From assembly GCA_050012755.1 (NCBI GenBank), contig JBEKGO010000022.1:1-64000 (forward strand): a DNA stretch of 64,000 bases, read 5' to 3'. Source of the DNA: Candidatus Bathyarchaeia archaeon. GTDB lineage: Archaea; Thermoproteota; Bathyarchaeia; Bathyarchaeales; Bathycorpusculaceae. The position numbers were made by a program, and so were the translations under genes. Positions 7,328 through 56,411 of this stretch are shown one piece after another. Numbering within the stretch: the stretch's first letter is position 1; each line of letters begins with the position of its first letter. A model generated the notes under the pieces. That model was not told the DNA's origin. It was given only the letters and a program-made list of their open reading frames with translations, and did not search any database.

Positions 7328-7587
7328 GAATTCTCGCCCCTCATCCGTATGATTTCTAACAAAGCATCTTCGTACTATAAAACAGTTTTTCAAAATCAAG
7401 CCTCAATTGAAAATCTAAATTCCAACCATTTTTAGAAGAATCAAAGGTTATTGTTTATCTGGCAAGCAACCGATAAATAAAAAGCCAACTTACAGCAAAG
7501 CCGTCTTTCCTCAACGCCCTACAGCAGCAGAAAAAAGGATAATTCTTAAATGTAAAAGTATTATTATCTTCTAAGAAAAGGAATATT

Positions 7588-8067
7588 ATGACTGAAAAGT
7601 TACATCCATATGTAGTATTTCTTCCCACTGAGAAAAAAGATAAGATTCTAAGCGCCATCTTCGGTTCAAAGGCTGGTGTAGACCTTTTGAGATTCTCACT
7701 CAAACAAGGCATATCAAAAAACATCTACCAAAAAGAACTCGTGAAACAATTAAACTACTCAAACAAGACAATAATTGAAAACCTAAAAGCCCTAACCAAA
7801 CTCGGCGTACTAAACGAAAGCATGGAAAAAGATGAGAAAGAAGGAAGAATCATTTGGGTAAAAACTTATCAGTTAACAAACCTTGGCAAATGGTTTGCGC
7901 TTTTAATGGCTGAAGAAAAAGAGCTCACGGAACAAGAAAAAGCCGAAATCCTCCAAAGCCTATTCAGAACATACGTTAAACAAGTTAAACGCTTGGCAGA
8001 AGAAATAGGAATAAACAAGAAAATGTTGGAAGAAACCTTCAGAGAAGAAATGAAAACCACCCCATAA
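7588..8067 (+). CDS. Winged-helix DNA-binding protein / transcriptional regulator
   Basis: IYQKELVKQLNYSNKTIIENLKALTKLGVL helix-turn-helix, followed by wing and YQLTNLG. Confidence 0.75.
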   Translation: MTEKLHPYVVFLPTEKKDKILSAIFGSKAGVDLLRFSLKQGISKNIYQKELVKQLNYSNKTIIENLKALTKLGVLNESMEKDEKEGRIIWVKTYQLTNLGKWFALLMAEEKELTEQEKAEILQSLFRTYVKQVKRLAEEIGINKKMLEETFREEMKTTP

Positions 8068-23493: not shown

Positions 23494-23802
23494 TTAGCCA
23501 ACGGCTAGTTTTCCAAATTTTCCAACGTTAAGTTGAAGTTCGCCTTTAAAGCTGGTTATGTATCCGTTGTCAATTTTAACATTGTCACCGACGTTGACTT
23601 GGTCAATTTGCTCATTCCATAAAGTCAGTTTTATGCTACCTGACTCATCGGCAACCACAGCATCAACTATTCTGTAAGTTTCATCTTTAAAACGTGATTT
23701 GACTTCTCGGGGGTCGCCTTTTTCAACAACTTTCGCTTCAACGCTAACCCGTTTCATTCCGTTCTGTAAATCTTTAATTGGTGTCACACTCACACTTATC
23801 AC
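23494..23802 (-). CDS. ssb: Single OB-fold single-stranded DNA-binding protein (crenarchaeal SSB type)
   Basis: IKDL, VADESGSIKLTLWN, FKGELQLNVGKFG. Confidence 0.88.
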   Translation of the reverse strand: MISVSVTPIKDLQNGMKRVSVEAKVVEKGDPREVKSRFKDETYRIVDAVVADESGSIKLTLWNEQIDQVNVGDNVKIDNGYITSFKGELQLNVGKFGKLAVG

Positions 23803-23855: not shown

Positions 23856-23871
23856 CATATAAATCTTGCTA
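23856..23871 (-). promoter_or_regulatory. Probable BRE/TATA promoter of ssb
   Basis: Minus strand TTAGCAAGATTTATATG about 55-70 bp upstream of the ssb start; it abuts the transposon target site. Confidence 0.5.
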
Positions 23872-24035
23872 ACTTCGGTTCTGTCAACTCTTCGGTTATT
23901 TGTTTTCCATGTAAACTTTCGGTTACGTTCTGTTACCCTCTCCGACTGTTCCATCTTCATGTTTCTTTTCGTCTGCTAATTCATGAAAGTAATAAATACT
24001 GAAACTAAACCATATTTCATAATTTGGAAATATCA

Positions 24036-24410
24036 ATGCCGAAATGTGAATTATGCGGAAAAGAAATACACTATCCCGAATTTCCATTCCGATGCCCTTA
24101 CTGCCAAAAAACATTCTGCGCCGAACATCGAATACCTGAAAGTCACGCATGTACAAATACACCTTTTTTAGCGCCTACTCTAACTTCGACAAAAACATGG
24201 GAACCATTTATGTGCCCAAATTGCGAAGCTCAAGAGAAAGATTGCGACATCACATATTATGATGCGGAAATAGTTACTTTCAAGTGCCGAGAATGTGGTA
24301 ATAAATGGACTCAAAAAAAGGGCAATTATGAACATGTTGAATTAAGAGAGCATTTAGATAAGAAAGAAAATGAAACTGAAAAACCGAAAAAGAGATTTCA
24401 TTTCTTTTGA
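24036..24410 (+). CDS. AN1-type zinc finger plus Zn-ribbon protein (transposon cargo)
   Basis: CELC...FRCPYCQKTFCAEHRIPESHAC AN1 pattern; second CPNC...CREC ribbon. Confidence 0.8.
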   Translation: MPKCELCGKEIHYPEFPFRCPYCQKTFCAEHRIPESHACTNTPFLAPTLTSTKTWEPFMCPNCEAQEKDCDITYYDAEIVTFKCRECGNKWTQKKGNYEHVELREHLDKKENETEKPKKRFHFF

Positions 24411-25534
24411 GTTGTTTTGGAGGAGCACGCGTTTTGAATGAGCGTTAGCCATTTGTTTTTTCCTTCTATTGCTATTCCACATGCTTCGCTCGGAGTTTTT
24501 CCGTCTAATGCTTCATGCGGTCTAATGAAGTTATGATAAAGTTGGCAACCTTGAAGAATTGCTGTATCAGTTGTCTTTAGTCCTCGCATAGTCTTTTCTC
24601 TATCTCGGATTTCTCCGTTCATGCGTTCCATTTTGTTATTATTGTGATTGCCTTTTAAAGTGATATGCCTAATGTGTTTGGTTCTAGGTCCTTTCATTGT
24701 CCACCACTCTTTGCCATATGCAACATGGTAAGAGTGTAGTCCATCAGTTATGAAAGTCATGGGTTTTTTTCCCATTAGTTCTTGAGACATACGTAATAGA
24801 TTTCTTGCGTCATGTTTGTCTTTGGTGTCAGCTACTTCTTGGGCTATCCAGAAACGTGTTTGGTCATCCATCATTGAAAAGAGATATTTCATGTTGCCTT
24901 TTACCTTTAGATAAATTTCGTCTGCTCTCCAAGTATCGCCAACATTAGGAACCAGTTTATCAGCGTAATTCTTCATTAAAGCAACATATTTTTTAATCCA
25001 ATTAAAAACCGTTTGATGCGAAACTTCCACTCCTAAAAGTTTGAGTGACTCCATTGTATTTCTTAAGCTCTCTCCAGAGAAATAAAGTTGCATAGCAGAG
25101 GTTATCGCTTGAGGATTATGCTTCATCCGTTCAAAACCAAGATTCACACTAAAGGTTTTACCGCAATCTTCACATAAGAACCGTTGAATATTTCCACTCT
25201 TGTTTTTTCTAACACTAAATTTTTTGATGTTTGCTGAGTGGCAAAAAGTGCAAGATGAAACATTAACCTCTTGAATGACAACATTCTTTCTGACCTCTGC
25301 CTTCAGTTTTTGGCTAAAGTCTACTGCAAAAATATGTTTACACTTGACATGGCGATACATAGCATCTGGGCAATCACACATCAATTCACCGTTGACTCTA
25401 TTAACGGTATATTCGCCATTGTTGGATTGTGATTTGACAATATAGAGGCAATCATCGATTTGTTTTACTTGACCGTTTAATTGTGCGATTGTTTGACCTC
25501 GTTCTTGTCTTGTGGTTGTTAGTTGGTTTGTCAT
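24398..25534 (-). CDS. IS6-family-like DDE transposase with N-terminal SWIM and Zn-ribbon domains
   Basis: SWIM CDCPD...CKH; CTFC...CEDC ribbon; HTH (GESLRNT...VSHQTVFNWIKKY); catalytic WRADE, ITDGL, NNKMERMN; HNFIRPHEAL. Confidence 0.92.
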   Translation of the reverse strand: MTNQLTTTRQERGQTIAQLNGQVKQIDDCLYIVKSQSNNGEYTVNRVNGELMCDCPDAMYRHVKCKHIFAVDFSQKLKAEVRKNVVIQEVNVSSCTFCHSANIKKFSVRKNKSGNIQRFLCEDCGKTFSVNLGFERMKHNPQAITSAMQLYFSGESLRNTMESLKLLGVEVSHQTVFNWIKKYVALMKNYADKLVPNVGDTWRADEIYLKVKGNMKYLFSMMDDQTRFWIAQEVADTKDKHDARNLLRMSQELMGKKPMTFITDGLHSYHVAYGKEWWTMKGPRTKHIRHITLKGNHNNNKMERMNGEIRDREKTMRGLKTTDTAILQGCQLYHNFIRPHEALDGKTPSEACGIAIEGKNKWLTLIQNACSSKTTQKK

Positions 25535-25633
25535 TTTAGGCACCTAAAACATAATTAGGTACCTAATAATATAAGCATTTCGGTACCTAAAATTATATAA
25601 AGGTCTAATATCTATTAGCCTAATAGGTGCCTA
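25534..25633. promoter_or_regulatory. Divergent tnp/abrB promoter region with four TAGGTACCTA-like palindromic operators
   Basis: TTTTAGGCACCTAAAA 25534-25549; ATTAGGTACCTAAT 25554-25567 (perfect palindrome); CGGTACCTAA 25581-25590; TAGGTGCCTA 25624-25633; TATA-like TTATATAAA about 25593. Confidence 0.7.
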
Positions 25634-25636
25634 AAA

Positions 25637-25801
25637 ATGAGGTTACAGAAGCAACTATCAAGAAAAGTGGATAAAATCGAATACCCAAAATATGTTGTGA
25701 CAATTCCACCGAAACAAATTCAAGAAGCAGGGTGGAAAGAGGGAATAGAACTTATAGCCGTTGTAGAAGACGGAAAAATTATTTTAAGACCTAAACAATG
25801 A
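25637..25801 (+). CDS. AbrB/MazE/SpoVT-family DNA-binding protein (54 aa, not in ORF track)
   Basis: MRLQKQLSRKVDKIEYPKYVVTIPPKQIQEAGWKEGIELIAVVEDGKIILRPKQ; VTIP...GW..G..L...IILRP swapped-hairpin signature; GGTG SD. Confidence 0.85.
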   Translation: MRLQKQLSRKVDKIEYPKYVVTIPPKQIQEAGWKEGIELIAVVEDGKIILRPKQ

Positions 25802-26563
25802 ATGTAGATGTTCATAAACTGCCTTAACTTCTTTATCAACGTCAGCCATTATTGTGCTTAAAGGAACCCCTATTATTTCTTTGGTTTGTCCTCCATCTGG
25901 AATACACCATATTTGAGGCAAGCCCTTTCCTACACCAACATTTTTTGTAATTTCATCTGTCTCTACGTATTTAATTGCGAATGCACCAATTTTTGCGGAT
26001 TGCACCATATTCATCGATTTATTCCAACATTTTCGGAAAATCTCAACGATGGGATTATACCCTATGAATACTGCTTCAGGCACTTCGACAGGTAAACAGT
26101 TAGTCGATTCTAAGTAGTACAGTTTGGCTAGATCATCTCTAGCGTTAACAGCAATTAAAATTTGAAGAGCACATTCATCATCGTTTTCAAACGCAACTGA
26201 ATATCGTTTTTTCATATCTGTAAGTAATTCTACACAATCTTGCTTAAAGTCAACAACAGAATATTCAAAATAAGGTGGGTTGGGGGCATCAGGATTATTT
26301 CCGAATGTATCTTCTCTATCTTTTTTTAATTTAGCGTTTTGATAAGTAATCCAAGATAAACGGCGATTTACATTTTGAGGAAGAATTGTTAGAAATTCTT
26401 CAAAGAGATTTTCCAAACCTGCTGCTCCAAAAATTGCCCATGGGATATTTTCACATTTCCTAACTTTCTCGGCATTATGTCCAACAAATTCGCCAGATCT
26501 AACTAATCTATCGCTAACAAGTACTACGCCGTCAGTGCATCGTGCACCGAAAATTAAGGTCAT
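25784..26563 (-). CDS. Proteasome-beta-like Ntn hydrolase (transposon cargo)
   Basis: MTLIFGARCTDGVVLVSDRLV...AEKV; Thr at position 2, Asp17- and Lys33-equivalent residues, GAAG, C-terminal NVGVG; GAGG SD before ATG 26563. Confidence 0.75.
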   Translation of the reverse strand: MTLIFGARCTDGVVLVSDRLVRSGEFVGHNAEKVRKCENIPWAIFGAAGLENLFEEFLTILPQNVNRRLSWITYQNAKLKKDREDTFGNNPDAPNPPYFEYSVVDFKQDCVELLTDMKKRYSVAFENDDECALQILIAVNARDDLAKLYYLESTNCLPVEVPEAVFIGYNPIVEIFRKCWNKSMNMVQSAKIGAFAIKYVETDEITKNVGVGKGLPQIWCIPDGGQTKEIIGVPLSTIMADVDKEVKAVYEHLHSLFRS

Positions 26564-26825
26564 GTGTTTATTTCCTCGCAGTCTTTTCCATTGCTCTTTT
26601 AGGTACCGATTACGTTGATTCTTGTATAAAGCATTTTGCTCTAGCAAGTTTAACCGACTCTTTACAGCCAAAAATTAAGCCTCCTTTTTACCGAAGACTT
26701 GACAGAACCCTAACTTCGGCACAGTTACCTCTACGGTTGCTGTTTTTCCCAAAATCTTTTGGAAACTTTCGGTTGCTGGAGGAATTCCAGTTGGGCAAAT
26801 AATAAATCTGAAGTGACACATGTTA

Positions 26826-27698
26826 ATGAACATGGATACTCGCAAGATTGCACAAGCAATATTGGATGCAATCGGTCACATCGGTTCAATCTTATGGCTT
26901 TTGATATTGCTAGGTGTGATCCCCGAACCAATGTTCCGAGGAGTTAACGTCATGCAAGAATACTCCCTAGTCTTCATTTTTCTGGCTCTGTTGATATTCT
27001 TTCTCTCTGCCCTTTGGTTGGGTTGGCAGATTCACACACGATATGTAAGGATTCCAGCATTCTCTCGAAAGGCAATTCCAAATGTGGATGAAAGATTTCA
27101 TAATCTGAAATTTCATTTTTCTCGGAAAACGGACACAGCAAAGGGTTCTCATGAACCGCCTAATTTCGTGGTGTATCAGGAAATTTACAAAGACACAAAA
27201 GAAGCCTATCCGATTCCTAATTATCTAGAACCTTATTTGAAAGCCTTTGAGACTAATTGGCAATCATACGATGGTATTAACAAAATAATGGAATATTTTG
27301 AAATTAACAAAATTCATCTGAACATCAAAGATCCTAGTTATGAAGATTTGGGTCTAGTGTTAGGTTGGGATGGATTACTCCATCTACCTGATTTGGACTG
27401 GGATATATTATTGAAGAAAATTGGCGGAAAAAAAATCAAAGGCGCAGTTATCTTCAATTTTCACTCGGTACGCTATATTTTTAGTTCCAAACCGTTTCTC
27501 ACACCTAACCGACTTCTAATTATAGAAAGAGAAGCATTTTGGGCTCCTCATCACGATATAGACTTGCTTTTTAGTCACAAAATAGAGCATAGAGATTGGA
27601 CTAAAATCAATTATAAGCTCTGGTGTTTGATTCATCATTACCATTATCATCCAGAGTACTATGATGAGGAAAAATTGCTTGAACTCTTAAAAGATTAG
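26826..27698 (+). CDS. Hypothetical protein with two N-terminal TM helices (cargo of element 2)
   Basis: About 290-aa AT-rich ORF; two hydrophobic helices then a soluble domain with no recognisable motif. Confidence 0.65.
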   Translation: MNMDTRKIAQAILDAIGHIGSILWLLILLGVIPEPMFRGVNVMQEYSLVFIFLALLIFFLSALWLGWQIHTRYVRIPAFSRKAIPNVDERFHNLKFHFSRKTDTAKGSHEPPNFVVYQEIYKDTKEAYPIPNYLEPYLKAFETNWQSYDGINKIMEYFEINKIHLNIKDPSYEDLGLVLGWDGLLHLPDLDWDILLKKIGGKKIKGAVIFNFHSVRYIFSSKPFLTPNRLLIIEREAFWAPHHDIDLLFSHKIEHRDWTKINYKLWCLIHHYHYHPEYYDEEKLLELLKD

Positions 27699-27858
27699 TA
27701 AACTGATTGCTGTCTTTTGTTTGCACTTGCGTTTTGTATTAGGGTTTTCCACTTGTTTTGTCCTTCAATGGCTATCCCACATGCTTCACTTGGAGTTTTC
27801 CGTCTAAGGCTTCATACGGTCTAATGTAATTTTGGAACAATTTGTAACCTTGAAGAAC
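27695..27858 (-). pseudogene. Frameshifted 3' remnant of the IS6-like transposase
   Basis: VLQGYKLFQNYIRPYEALDGK/TPSEACGIAIEGQNKWKTLIQNAS vs intact ILQGCQLYHNFIRPHEALDGKTPSEACGIAIEGKNKWLTLIQNAC; one base missing from a T-run. Confidence 0.9.
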
Positions 27859-28052
27859 CAAATAGAAGCGACAAGAGTTATTGAAGAGTTCGAATCGGAA
27901 AAGACTCAAAAAAGTTTTTCAGACTTTCCACTTTAGTTTGCTATCGACCGATTTTTCACAGAGAAAATCGTCAACGGACAACTTCACAGAACCCTAACTT
28001 TCTGTGAGCTGAAGCAAAAAAGAAAAAATTTAAAAAAAGACGAATTGTGGGG

Positions 28053-29342
28053 CTAAACAAAACCCACGAACAGCACTAAGACAAACCACGTAACTGCTAC
28101 GCTAACAGCTGCAATCAAAATTCGTTTCATCATTGAAAACTCTGGTTGAAGTGTTCCAACAATTATTGTGCAGAGAGCGCCTAACCAAACGTAGGATACT
28201 AAGAACATCGCTTCAACGACAAAGTCGAAGCCTGAGGTTACTGCCACTATATTGTTGAGAACAGCTTGGGACTGCGCTGTATAAGTGACTGCTGCTTGGA
28301 CAGGCACATATATTGCCCCATAAGGATTAGACGTAACCCCAAGTGAGACGTCAAATGGATAATAAACTGTGGGCAAGGTAAATGCTACCGCAATGTTTAC
28401 TACTGATCGAATGACCATAACAAACAAAGCAAAAACTACTGCAACAAAAAGGGGTTTCCAAGTGATATTGGCTTTTAACCCTTTGAAGAAGAGGTAAATT
28501 AGCCCTGTTAACAACAGCCAACTAAAAATGAACTGTAGAGAGAAAGCCTCCAAGAAGGATAGTAGAGCATTGGGTCCATAGGTTTGAATGAAAGTTTGAT
28601 ATTCCCCATGGAAGAATAAAGCGCCAATACGAATGACGAAATTTGAGCCAGATGGATAATTGAAGTCTAACTTTAATGCTGTAATATTACCCCAAGAAGG
28701 TGCTCCGCCAACGGCCCAGCCTTGAGCAGATGGACCTACTGGAATTGTTAGGTTGTTCCACTGGTTAATGTCTGAAGAGTTTGACATAAGTGAAGTTAAG
28801 TCATAAGTGTAATAGTTAGAGTCAGCAACTGAGTAAAGAGTAATAGTTGCGCTTGTGGGCACGATTTGAGGTTGAACCTGTTTTAACGTCATTGATAAGT
28901 TCTCAAAGCCGCCAGCAGCGCAGCTAACATTGAAAGCATTGCTTAAAGCAGCGGAAACGGCGCTAGCGTTGTTGGCATCAATTTCCAAGCTGCTATTTCC
29001 AAATAAACTGTAGTTTCCTATAATCGCTGGAACGTAAACGCTGTAGTTGAAGTAGTCATCAAAATTGTTGCTAATCGTTACGCCAGCACTGGCTCTCCAT
29101 AATGTTGAGTTTGGTTCAGAGGACATCGCTGCTGTTGCGTTGATATAATCTGATAATTGACCGATCGCAGGTGATGTGTTTTCGGTGTATGTTTTTGAGA
29201 ACTGTGCATATGCATATCCCATTTGTAAGCCTATGAAAAGAAGCAGAATAATTATGGCACCCAGATACTTTGGATTTTCAATTATCTTCTTGAATGCTGT
29301 TGCTGGTGCATAAATTACTCTTGCAATGTCATCTAGAATCAA
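28053..29342 (-). CDS. Yip1-like membrane protein with a large extracellular insertion
   Basis: VIYAPATAFKKI Yip1-type start; extracellular beta-rich region with NxS/T sites; C-terminal TM helices. Confidence 0.65.
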   Translation of the reverse strand: MILDDIARVIYAPATAFKKIIENPKYLGAIIILLLFIGLQMGYAYAQFSKTYTENTSPAIGQLSDYINATAAMSSEPNSTLWRASAGVTISNNFDDYFNYSVYVPAIIGNYSLFGNSSLEIDANNASAVSAALSNAFNVSCAAGGFENLSMTLKQVQPQIVPTSATITLYSVADSNYYTYDLTSLMSNSSDINQWNNLTIPVGPSAQGWAVGGAPSWGNITALKLDFNYPSGSNFVIRIGALFFHGEYQTFIQTYGPNALLSFLEAFSLQFIFSWLLLTGLIYLFFKGLKANITWKPLFVAVVFALFVMVIRSVVNIAVAFTLPTVYYPFDVSLGVTSNPYGAIYVPVQAAVTYTAQSQAVLNNIVAVTSGFDFVVEAMFLVSYVWLGALCTIIVGTLQPEFSMMKRILIAAVSVAVTWFVLVLFVGFV

Positions 29343-55472: not shown

Positions 55473-56411
55473 TTAATCAGGCAACTCAAGGTTTAATTGT
55501 TTTTTAAGTGTCTTGTAGCGATTGCGCACTGTTACTTCTGTTACGCCAGCAGCTTCAGCGATGTCTTTCTGAGTCTTTTTCTCGCCATTCTGCAAACAAG
55601 CAATGTAGAGGGCAGCAGCAGCTAATCCCATGGGGTCTTTTCCGGCAGCAGCACGTTTACGTCTTGCTTCCCTAAGAATTTGGATGGCTGCACCTTGAGT
55701 TTTTCCTGAAATCCCGGTTTTCTCTGCAATTTTGGATACGTAAGTCAACGGGTCAGCGATGGGCATATGCACATCAAGTTCGCGTAACAGTAGCCTGTAG
55801 CATCTTGCAACGTCTTTTTTGTCAACGAGACTGGCTTCAGCTATTTCCCGTAGTGTGCGTGGTGTTCCGCTTCCGCGGCAAGCTGCATAAAGCGCAGCAG
55901 CAGCGATAGCAGCGATTGATCTTCCGCGAACTAAACCTTTGTCCAATGCTTTACGATAAACAACAGCGGCTTTCTCTTTAATTGGCGGAGGAATGTAGAC
56001 CTTGTCTGAAAGACGGTCAAGTTCCGCCATGGCTTGAGCCAAATTGCGGTCAATAGATGAGTGGACTCTACTGCGTATTTGCCATTTCCTAAGGCGCCAC
56101 ATTTGAAGTCGTGTGGACAGGGGCAGTTTTCTTCCGAATGCATCTCGGTCGACTTGGCTAATGGCTGTAGATAATCCTTTGTCATGAACTGAGTAGGAGG
56201 TTGGAACACCAACTCGGCTTCTTGACGCTTTCTCTTCTTGAGTGAACGCACGCCATTCTGGTCCTTTGTCCATCATTTGCTCGTATAGGACCAAGCCACA
56301 GTCGCCGCATACGGTTTCGCCTGTGTCATAATCGTGAACTAAATTTTCGCTGCCGCACTCTGCACACTTATCGGATAAGCGCGCCTGTGTTTTAACTTCT
56401 TTTTTGCTCAA
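55473..56411 (-). CDS. tfb: Transcription initiation factor IIB
   Basis: CAECG...CGDCG Zn ribbon, GPEWRAF, two cyclin repeats, VTEVTVRNRYK. Confidence 0.98.
   Translation of the reverse strand: MSKKEVKTQARLSDKCAECGSENLVHDYDTGETVCGDCGLVLYEQMMDKGPEWRAFTQEEKASRSRVGVPTSYSVHDKGLSTAISQVDRDAFGRKLPLSTRLQMWRLRKWQIRSRVHSSIDRNLAQAMAELDRLSDKVYIPPPIKEKAAVVYRKALDKGLVRGRSIAAIAAAALYAACRGSGTPRTLREIAEASLVDKKDVARCYRLLLRELDVHMPIADPLTYVSKIAEKTGISGKTQGAAIQILREARRKRAAAGKDPMGLAAAALYIACLQNGEKKTQKDIAEAAGVTEVTVRNRYKTLKKQLNLELPD

Follow-up and report, generated by a model that had tools for sequence, protein, structure and literature searches.

The window analyzed here comprises 64,000 nucleotides of a Candidatus Bathyarchaeia archaeon (GenBank assembly GCA_050012755.1, contig JBEKGO010000022.1, positions 1 to 64,000 of the forward strand). 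At 23869-28001, directly beside the promoter of an ssb-like gene, two cargo-carrying transposons resembling insertion sequences (IS) of the IS6 family stand in tandem, separated and bounded by one and the same 8-bp word. The array was likely built in two steps by cargo-carrying DDE transposons of IS6-like type, related to each other but distinct, which chose their target by its position relative to the archaeal core promoter. This reading is carried by the anatomy of the array, the empty site in relatives, repeated strikes at an identical boundary, a fixed register to TATA-like boxes and the polarity of arrays. To our knowledge, prokaryotic DDE transposons are generally seen as weakly selective, save for systems with an attachment (att) site such as Tn7 and casposons, and IS6-type elements are credited with little target specificity.

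Element 1 is an intact cargo transposon of 2833 bp (23877-26709, minus strand) and element 2 a decayed one of 1276 bp (26718-27993, minus strand). Three copies of the target duplication frame them: the promoter-adjacent copy CTAACTTC at 23869-23876, the same word separating the two elements at 26710-26717, and CTAACTTT at 27994-28001, most distant from the promoter. Both elements have the same orientation, and the intact one lies within the duplication of the decayed one. The 20-nt arms of element 1, GGTTCTGTCAACTCTTCGGT at 23877-23896 and the reverse complement of GGTTCTGTCAAGTCTTCGGT at 26690-26709, are complementary at 19/20 positions (95%), and nowhere else in the window does the end pattern match (expectation from 100 shuffles, 0.00). 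They begin GGTTCTG, which we take to be IS257-like. Element 2 keeps a right end, GGTTCTGTGAAGTTGTCCGT at 27974-27993, located at 2 mismatches, while its left end, GGCACAGTTACC..., agrees with its own right arm at only about 10 of 20 positions by hand count. A subterminal motif, TG[T/G]AAACTTTCGGTT, is common to both elements; otherwise their ends match at only 75-85%. What is left of the element 2 transposase is a frameshifted C-terminal remnant (27707-27858, minus strand), recognized by protein and DNA matches to element 1: 27707-27811 is 71% identical to transposase residues 345-379, and 27751-27858, in another frame and with a TAG inside, is 44% identical to residues 329-364. At the DNA level the identity is 82-83% with a 1-nt register shift.

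A first-pass annotation of this stretch, made by a model from the letters alone, had described exactly this layout, and its coordinates, the 19/20 arms, the decayed ends with their common motif, the frameshifted remnant, the equal orientation and the nesting of the intact element were all confirmed on re-reading. Its claim of two diverged elements that inserted independently likewise holds, given the DNA identity of the remnant and the different cargo. The 8-mer by itself is not rare, with 13 matches to CTAACTTY in the window against 6.19 expected; the signal lies in the fact that three copies each adjoin an element end. Contigs from public peat and wetland sequencing runs, which may include the source sample, cross the junctions of ssb with element 1, of element 1 with element 2 and of element 2 with the downstream sequence without a single difference, and one contig of 3145 bp does so across the middle duplication copy (26710-26717). 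Among the contigs of four such runs no form lacking element 2 was found. One joint in them leads back from 27769 to 24480 and probably stems from other family members. Neither a tRNA gene nor an Rfam family was found at the insertion site.

The target itself is best appreciated on the minus strand, where the promoter-side duplication GAAGTTAG is followed by CAAGA (23868-23864) and then by TTTATAT (23863-23857), upstream of the ssb-like OB-fold gene (23494-23802, minus strand; PF21473 Ssb-like_OB, E = 4.7e-15). Together these two motifs form what we take to be the ssb core promoter (23857-23868, minus strand), a BRE-like element (B recognition element) and a TATA box; the labels come from general knowledge of archaeal promoters and not from a transcript map. 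The array is placed upstream of this TATA box, at a distance of 5 nt. On its other side the target is preceded by the T-rich 3' flank of a Yip1-like gene, which also adjoins ssb in genomes of the same genus: within the stretches fetched, the two are neighbors in 26/29 loci from other genomes, where the gene beside the Yip1-like one is 83-99% identical to the ssb-like gene of the window. The first-pass annotation had proposed to look for an empty site in this region, and there is one. The closest relative (G282, ssb 99% identical) reads ...TAGTTAG followed directly by CAAGATTTATATG, and 24 of the 29 same-genus loci have a gap between the Yip1-like gene and ssb of empty size, about 140-240 nt. 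The block AGTTAG(G)CAAGATTTATATGATTGAAGG is conserved at these ssb loci.

The remaining five genomes each have an insert at the ssb promoter. G255 carries a 2972-bp element whose duplication CGAGTTAG is perfect and whose intact transposase is 71% identical to that of element 1; G293 a 785-bp derivative with the duplication AAAGTTAG/ACAGTTAG; G297 a decayed element of about 0.9 kb; and G302 a related element of 2335 bp whose transposase lacks the SWIM domain, with the perfect 9-bp duplication GTAGCTAGG. The type of the fifth insert (G260) is unclear. In the first four, element and duplication all end at the same base, the G that directly precedes CAAGATTTATATG, while the first two bases of the duplicated word vary between genomes (GA, AC, CG, AA). 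Given that these four interpretable inserts share their end base although the first bases of the duplicated words differ, different elements have struck the ssb promoter several times over, each on its own, and always at a single phosphodiester position. The proposed reuse of the site by other elements is borne out in this way, with five other genomes occupied and four of them at an identical boundary. What does not stand is the notion of a site defined by one 8-mer: the same boundary is indeed reused, but the 8-mer is not its determinant and ssb is one of several favored promoters.

This becomes apparent when relatives of element 1 are compared. The best 80 of 578 transposase matches were surveyed with 10-kb flanks, and an element was counted as resolved if its inverted ends matched at >=15/24, that is at least 15 of 24, positions and enclosed a perfect 8-bp duplication. 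In 37 of the 80 loci 38 elements were resolved, all 38 with perfect 8-bp duplications, 1983-6230 bp in length and ending in the terminal pattern GGTTCTGT that is also present at both ends of element 1. Their duplicated 8-mers are every one different. The position of these words is another matter. Where a flank is free, which is so at 34 sites, the best-scoring TATA-like 7-mer begins 3-6 nt past the duplication in 24, with an offset of 4 nt in 11 sites, 5 nt in nine and 3 nt in four; random positions under identical treatment reach this in 14.4% of 3519 cases (binomial p = 1.8e-13). The TATA score follows a crude, hand-made 7-mer rule. Aligned and oriented, the sites have the profile of the duplication followed directly by C A A n n T T T A W, which may be read as a BRE-like CAA and then a TATA box, names again taken from general knowledge of archaeal promoters. 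An open reading frame (ORF) of at least 50 codons (>=50 aa) begins within about 260 nt downstream in 28/34 sites, mostly 24-120 nt from the box. The genes thus headed are largely housekeeping ones: LSm (twice), proteasome beta (twice), TBP (twice), TFB, S6e, MetK, CTP synthase, SufB and others, the genes hit twice coming from different metagenome-assembled genomes (MAGs). In L081, L085 and L122 the promoter hit is that of a TBP or TFB gene. Every site found is intergenic, with an unbroken core promoter, and solo elements without any neighbor keep the same distance to the TATA-like box. Since the 8-mers all differ while the boxes keep a fixed register, the target is a promoter-set position and not the 8-mer sequence.

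A sister group of elements extends this picture. Its transposases (L191-L210) are about 300 residues long, lack the SWIM domain and are about 33% identical to that of element 1, aligning from residue ~96. Thirteen elements were resolved, 2.9-6.9 kb long and with ends GATACTGT or GGTACTGG; 12 of the 13 have 9-bp duplications, and in 10 the box lies at +4 or +5. The 8-bp and 9-bp groups have the promoter-side edge of the duplication in common. Because these SWIM-less relatives show the same placement, the SWIM domain is dispensable for promoter targeting. Both types also occur in the same arrays (L199), one SWIM-less element adjoining a GGTTCTGG end. The programmed targeting beside the ssb BRE and TATA box that the first-pass annotation had proposed is therefore supported and extends to the whole family. 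Its description of an array built by a SWIM-DDE transposase is correct for element 1, whose transposase has both parts, but SWIM-less relatives target alike. Targets do cluster, 3-6 nt upstream of BRE/TATA-like boxes, yet not on a common word; random duplications, which had been named as evidence against the claim, are found in the letter, as 38 different 8-mers, and not in the sense, as the positions are far from random.

Arrays like the one in the window recur in the family. For 14 of the 38 elements the end of another element lies exactly 8 bp away, and an independent pattern search of 332 genomes returned 12 facing end pairs, seven of them at exactly 8 bp (p = 2.5e-8 against uniform spacing of 0-30 nt), three of the seven being one locus in sister genomes. 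A reversed control pattern matched in one genome of the 332. Some facing ends are 6, 3 or 11 bp apart (L062 2815-2836 in G203, L049, L051), which may be decayed duplications or other events. Arrays have a direction. All ten elements with one abutting neighbor carry a TATA-like box at +4 or +5 on their free flank. In 11/11 arrays that could be resolved, counting that of the window, a full-length transposase is found next to the promoter and only a C-terminal remnant or none in the distal-most element, while two further arrays are indeterminate; the test bears only on where intact elements sit, since each locus was picked through a full-length transposase. The order of elements is instructive in one genus, in which the same promoter is followed by A-C (G139), B-A' (G180) or P-B-A (G120), with element A intact only where it is promoter-adjacent. 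Within arrays the same bonds were reused up to three or four times. The predicted polarity, with the newest element next to the promoter, is thus what we see in every array that can be resolved. It fits promoter-anchored insertion because the TATA-adjacent duplication stays a valid target, and is unlike what attraction to resident ends would predict.

How could such an order come about? A staggered cut of 8 bp (9 bp in the SWIM-less group) would have its promoter-side edge at the upstream border of the BRE, 4-5 bp before the TATA box. The duplication copy beside the TATA box would then retain the full determinant, and the next arrival would cut the same phosphodiester bonds. This would lead to tandem arrays split by the same 8-mer, in which the newest element adjoins the promoter and decay affects the older ones farther out. 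In the window, element 2 would have arrived first and element 1 would then have entered its promoter-side duplication, with the ssb BRE and TATA box intact throughout both insertions.

The strongest competitor, though an improbable one, holds that incoming elements, in the manner of IS26, seek out the end of a resident one and insert in its duplication, the promoter being irrelevant. It was our first reading after arrays with other 8-mers had been found, and was demoted by solo sites, empty sites and polarity. The 14/38 abutting elements and 7/12 facing pairs at exactly 8 bp are what it would lead one to expect, and IS26 integrates about 100-fold more often beside a resident IS26 (Varani et al. 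2021, PMC7986276). Solo elements, however, keep the same distance to the TATA-like box with no resident nearby; the ssb boundary was struck in genomes whose closer relatives have an empty site; and newcomers are always found on the promoter side, never on the far side. Targeted integration of the IS26 type, moreover, proceeds without a new duplication and would not repeat the 8-mer, but in the window the same word recurs in the middle and on the outside. Resident ends may contribute on top of promoter targeting, which would help explain why up to a third of the elements sit in arrays.

Less probable still is random insertion followed by selection, in which only those copies survive that landed in harmless intergenic positions of compact genomes. 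The genomes are gene-dense and every site is intergenic with its core promoter intact, as this would require; selection of this kind does not readily explain precision to the nucleotide, though. The seemingly neutral spacer of about 50 nt that separates the 8-mer from the upstream gene stays unused in the 6 genomes with an occupied ssb site, offsets 4 and 5 make up 20/34 sites, the 8-bp and 9-bp groups have one promoter-side edge, and the same bonds are cut up to three or four times in arrays.

Hardly credible, finally, is recognition of CTAACTT(C/T) by sequence or an origin of element 2 by local duplication or adjacent transposition of element 1: the same 8-mer does recur thrice at element boundaries, and end motifs and orientation are common to both elements, but the 8-mers of the 38 relatives all differ, the third family copy of the genome is flanked by another word, TTAAGAAA, the first two bases vary at ssb at a fixed position, and the local duplication that the first-pass annotation had named as a possible refutation is contradicted by the divergence of the remnant (82-83% DNA identity), the different cargo and ends that match only at 75-85%.

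Several points weigh against insertion set by the promoter. No best box lies at +3 to +6 in 10 of the 34 sites; in some a second box does lie there, or an AT-rich one that escapes the rule, in others neither does. The 7-mer rule was, moreover, applied to uncultured archaea without known transcription start sites. The sample is a selected one, with clean boundaries at only 37/80 loci, and since loci were picked through a full-length transposase, there is a bias in which element looks intact. Nor are the genomes of a single genus independent of one another: the inserts of G255 and G297 have the same end type and may go back to one ancestral insertion. The outer flank of L083 (G060), one of the two indeterminate arrays, has no TATA-like box. 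The four public runs contained no contig without element 1 and thus give no sign of recent mobility at the ssb locus. Part of the clustering may be survivorship, insertions elsewhere having been removed by selection. The case as a whole is built on sequence comparison. We infer that targeting is mechanistic rather than a matter of survivorship, and that the conserved transposase is the selector.

The transposase is the candidate for this role, being the only conserved protein: among 120 cargo ORFs of the 38 elements no family occurs in more than 4 elements. A dedicated target-selector gene beside the transposase was sought among these ORFs and none is conserved, and no Tn7-type or Cas1-type protein is present among the 25 cargo families listed of 39 found. 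In element 1 the transposase (24398-25543, minus strand, 381 residues) matches PF13610 DDE_Tnp_IS240 (E = 2.8e-18; 66.8 bits with a cut-off of 27) and is the sole full-length copy in its genome. It is composed, in this order, of a SWIM-type CxC..CxH motif, a second, four-cysteine zinc ribbon and a DDE core (D208, D267, E311) whose three residues are invariant in an alignment of 17 sequences. Whether the promoter is sensed through its TBP/TFB-bound, bent form or through direct readout of BRE/TATA DNA, we regard as about equally likely. A more specific proposal can be put forward only tentatively: the zinc-ribbon and helix-turn-helix part common to the SWIM and SWIM-less groups may recognize the TBP(/TFB)-bound bent promoter, not the DNA sequence, integrate at the upstream edge of the BRE and prefer heavily occupied housekeeping promoters such as those of ssb, LSm, proteasome beta, TBP and TFB genes, arrays then recording invasions. 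That a few housekeeping promoters are favored in genomes with only a handful of elements hints at occupancy by the initiation complex, although selection could give the same bias. A profile search of solved structures with the transposase gave only a single, insignificant hit (E = 0.88), the AlphaFold2 model from the 17 sequences is too poor for a fold search (mean predicted local distance difference test, pLDDT, of 59.6), and modeling the transposase alignment in complex with the best TFB and the best TBP of the genome, at a median score of 0.16, speaks neither for nor against binding. The genome encodes three TFB paralogues, one of them in the window (~55500-56400, minus strand), and two TBP paralogues; those outside the window lie on contigs 3, 50, 25 and 6.

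Element 1 further carries three cargo genes. A zf-AN1 zinc-finger protein of 128 residues (24024-24410, plus strand; PF01428, E = 9.4e-10) is followed, beyond the transposase, by a small DNA-binding protein of AbrB/MazE type with 54 residues (25637-25801, plus strand; PF04014, E = 1.1e-7) and a stand-alone proteasome-subunit-like protein (25784-26671, minus strand; PF00227, E = 4.4e-5). The latter compares well to Proteasome clusters of the Atlas (feature score 0.96, TM 0.79), where its record begins at residue 37, probably its real start. Between the divergent tnp and abrB genes, three TTAGGTACCTAA-like palindromes (25536-25597) form a possible operator, and a fourth is found at 26599-26612, ~36 nt upstream of where the proteasome-like gene probably starts; together they look like an operator set for the AbrB-type protein. 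The cargo of element 2 is an orphan ORF of 292 residues (26820-27698, plus strand) without a Pfam family, for which the Atlas gave no usable match and only a poor model. Upstream of the array follows the Yip1-like neighbor (28053-29342, minus strand), a membrane protein whose match to PF04893 (E = 5.4e-4) is weak and below the curated cut-off.

The genome holds a third, truncated family member on contig 7 (L011 7343-8189), consisting of a transposase remnant (7343-7654, 66% identical), a 143-residue membrane ORF and one end; this end is flanked by the word given above, ~57 nt upstream of a gene for an ABC-type ATPase. Decayed copies in general (27707-27858, L011 7343-7654 and many short matches) keep the same final 50-120 residues of the transposase, beside a cargo gene and one end. 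Perhaps the remnant is retained as it flanks a cargo gene that is kept, or deletions may begin at the other end. Summed contig depth in the four peat and wetland runs is several-fold higher over 24497-24667 and 27746-27916, the conserved 3' part of the transposase gene, than in the remainder of the region, a sign that related elements may be numerous in those communities. Transposase relatives of full length, 58-74% identical, are present in 63/200 sampled genomes of the same taxonomic family and also in MAGs named as Bathyarchaeia, Nitrososphaerota, Methanoperedens, Methanoregula, Methanotrichaceae and Asgard archaea. Four contigs with close transposase relatives (L079, L087, L089, L122) are filed under bacterial MAGs (Saccharibacteria, Limnocylindrales, Pirellulales); as the genes nearby look archaeal, a TFB gene in L122 among them, mis-binning is likely.

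An abundant group of archaeal cargo transposons, ranging from Bathyarchaeia and Nitrososphaerota to methanogen and Methanoperedens lineages and Asgard MAGs, thus sits at a fixed distance of a few nucleotides from the TATA box. If this targeting is mechanistic, archaea would here have their first system of promoter-directed integration, as far as the searched literature shows. It would also constitute a natural safe-harbor strategy for spreading restriction-modification, toxin-antitoxin and other accessory genes without gene disruption, provide a computational marker for active core promoters of uncultured archaea, and possibly a tool for promoter-proximal insertion in archaeal genetics. The polarized arrays would then hold a built-in relative chronology of invasions. 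The literature is silent on such behavior within the range covered. Full-text searches, which extended to neither subscription journals nor supplements, returned no description of promoter-directed cargo transposons; the passages of the IS6 review (PMC7986276) do not mention promoter-directed insertion, those of the Thaumarchaeota mobilome paper (PMC6563490) describe no promoter homing, and a search for terms in a 2026 survey of archaeal IS (PMC13343696) gave none of promoter, TATA, SWIM or passenger.

Which known systems come closest? With the IS6/IS26 family (IS26, IS257, IS240) the elements share a DDE transposase of the IS240-type Pfam model, 8-bp duplications in 38/38 cases and inverted ends that start with GG and have a G at position 7, in element 1 as in the 38 relatives. 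Canonical members, as the review sections describe them, are 700-890 bp long, encode transposases of 213-254 residues, have no notable target preference and carry a passenger gene in only one listed member (PMC7986276). Element 1, in contrast, is not compact, with 2833 bp, three cargo genes and a 381-residue transposase with two extra zinc modules, and its relatives of 2-6 kb have a promoter-set target. As all resolved elements measure 2.0-6.2 kb, cargo is the rule in the SWIM type; it includes DNA methylases, restriction enzymes, PIN and NYN nucleases, acetyltransferases and many unknowns. Harmer and Hall argue that archaeal "IS6" elements, for which they note a lack of experiments, may not belong to the family at all, and their published analysis sets archaeal members apart from bacterial IS6/IS26 (PMC6807381). 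Long clostridial IS6-like elements of "clade h", with an N-terminal zinc finger, transposases of 340-350 residues and 1.2-1.5 kb in length (PMC7986276), resemble the present group in an N-terminal CxxC zinc module ahead of helix-turn-helix and DDE domains. They are bacterial, however, and in those review passages are not described with cargo or promoter targeting.

The clustering of elements at one place recalls targeted conservative integration of IS26. That route, according to the same passages, makes no new duplication and leaves one IS copy common to the units (PMC7986276), whereas here each of the complete and different elements has the same newly made 8-bp duplication on both sides, and arrays grow on the promoter side only. 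Another parallel is offered by attTn7 islands, tandem casposons and tandem proviruses, the latter two described for archaea in the mobilome paper (PMC6563490): the target determinant survives integration, and an ordered pile-up results. These att systems recognize one specific gene or sequence (glmS, ef-2, tRNA genes), while the present elements use many promoters with a common BRE/TATA geometry. They also differ from Tn7-like elements in having no dedicated selector protein, only the transposase being conserved in the 38 elements. Yeast Ty3 and other eukaryotic elements integrate at promoters bound by transcription factors, Ty3 being a retrotransposon that reaches Pol III genes via TFIIIB. 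Like Ty3, the archaeal elements keep a fixed distance, on the scale of nucleotides, from where a TBP-containing initiation complex would form, and spare the gene; unlike it, they are DNA transposons, known here from their sequences. Should they indeed recognize the TBP(/TFB)-bound promoter, they would represent an archaeal DNA-transposon counterpart of the initiation-complex targeting exemplified by Ty3.

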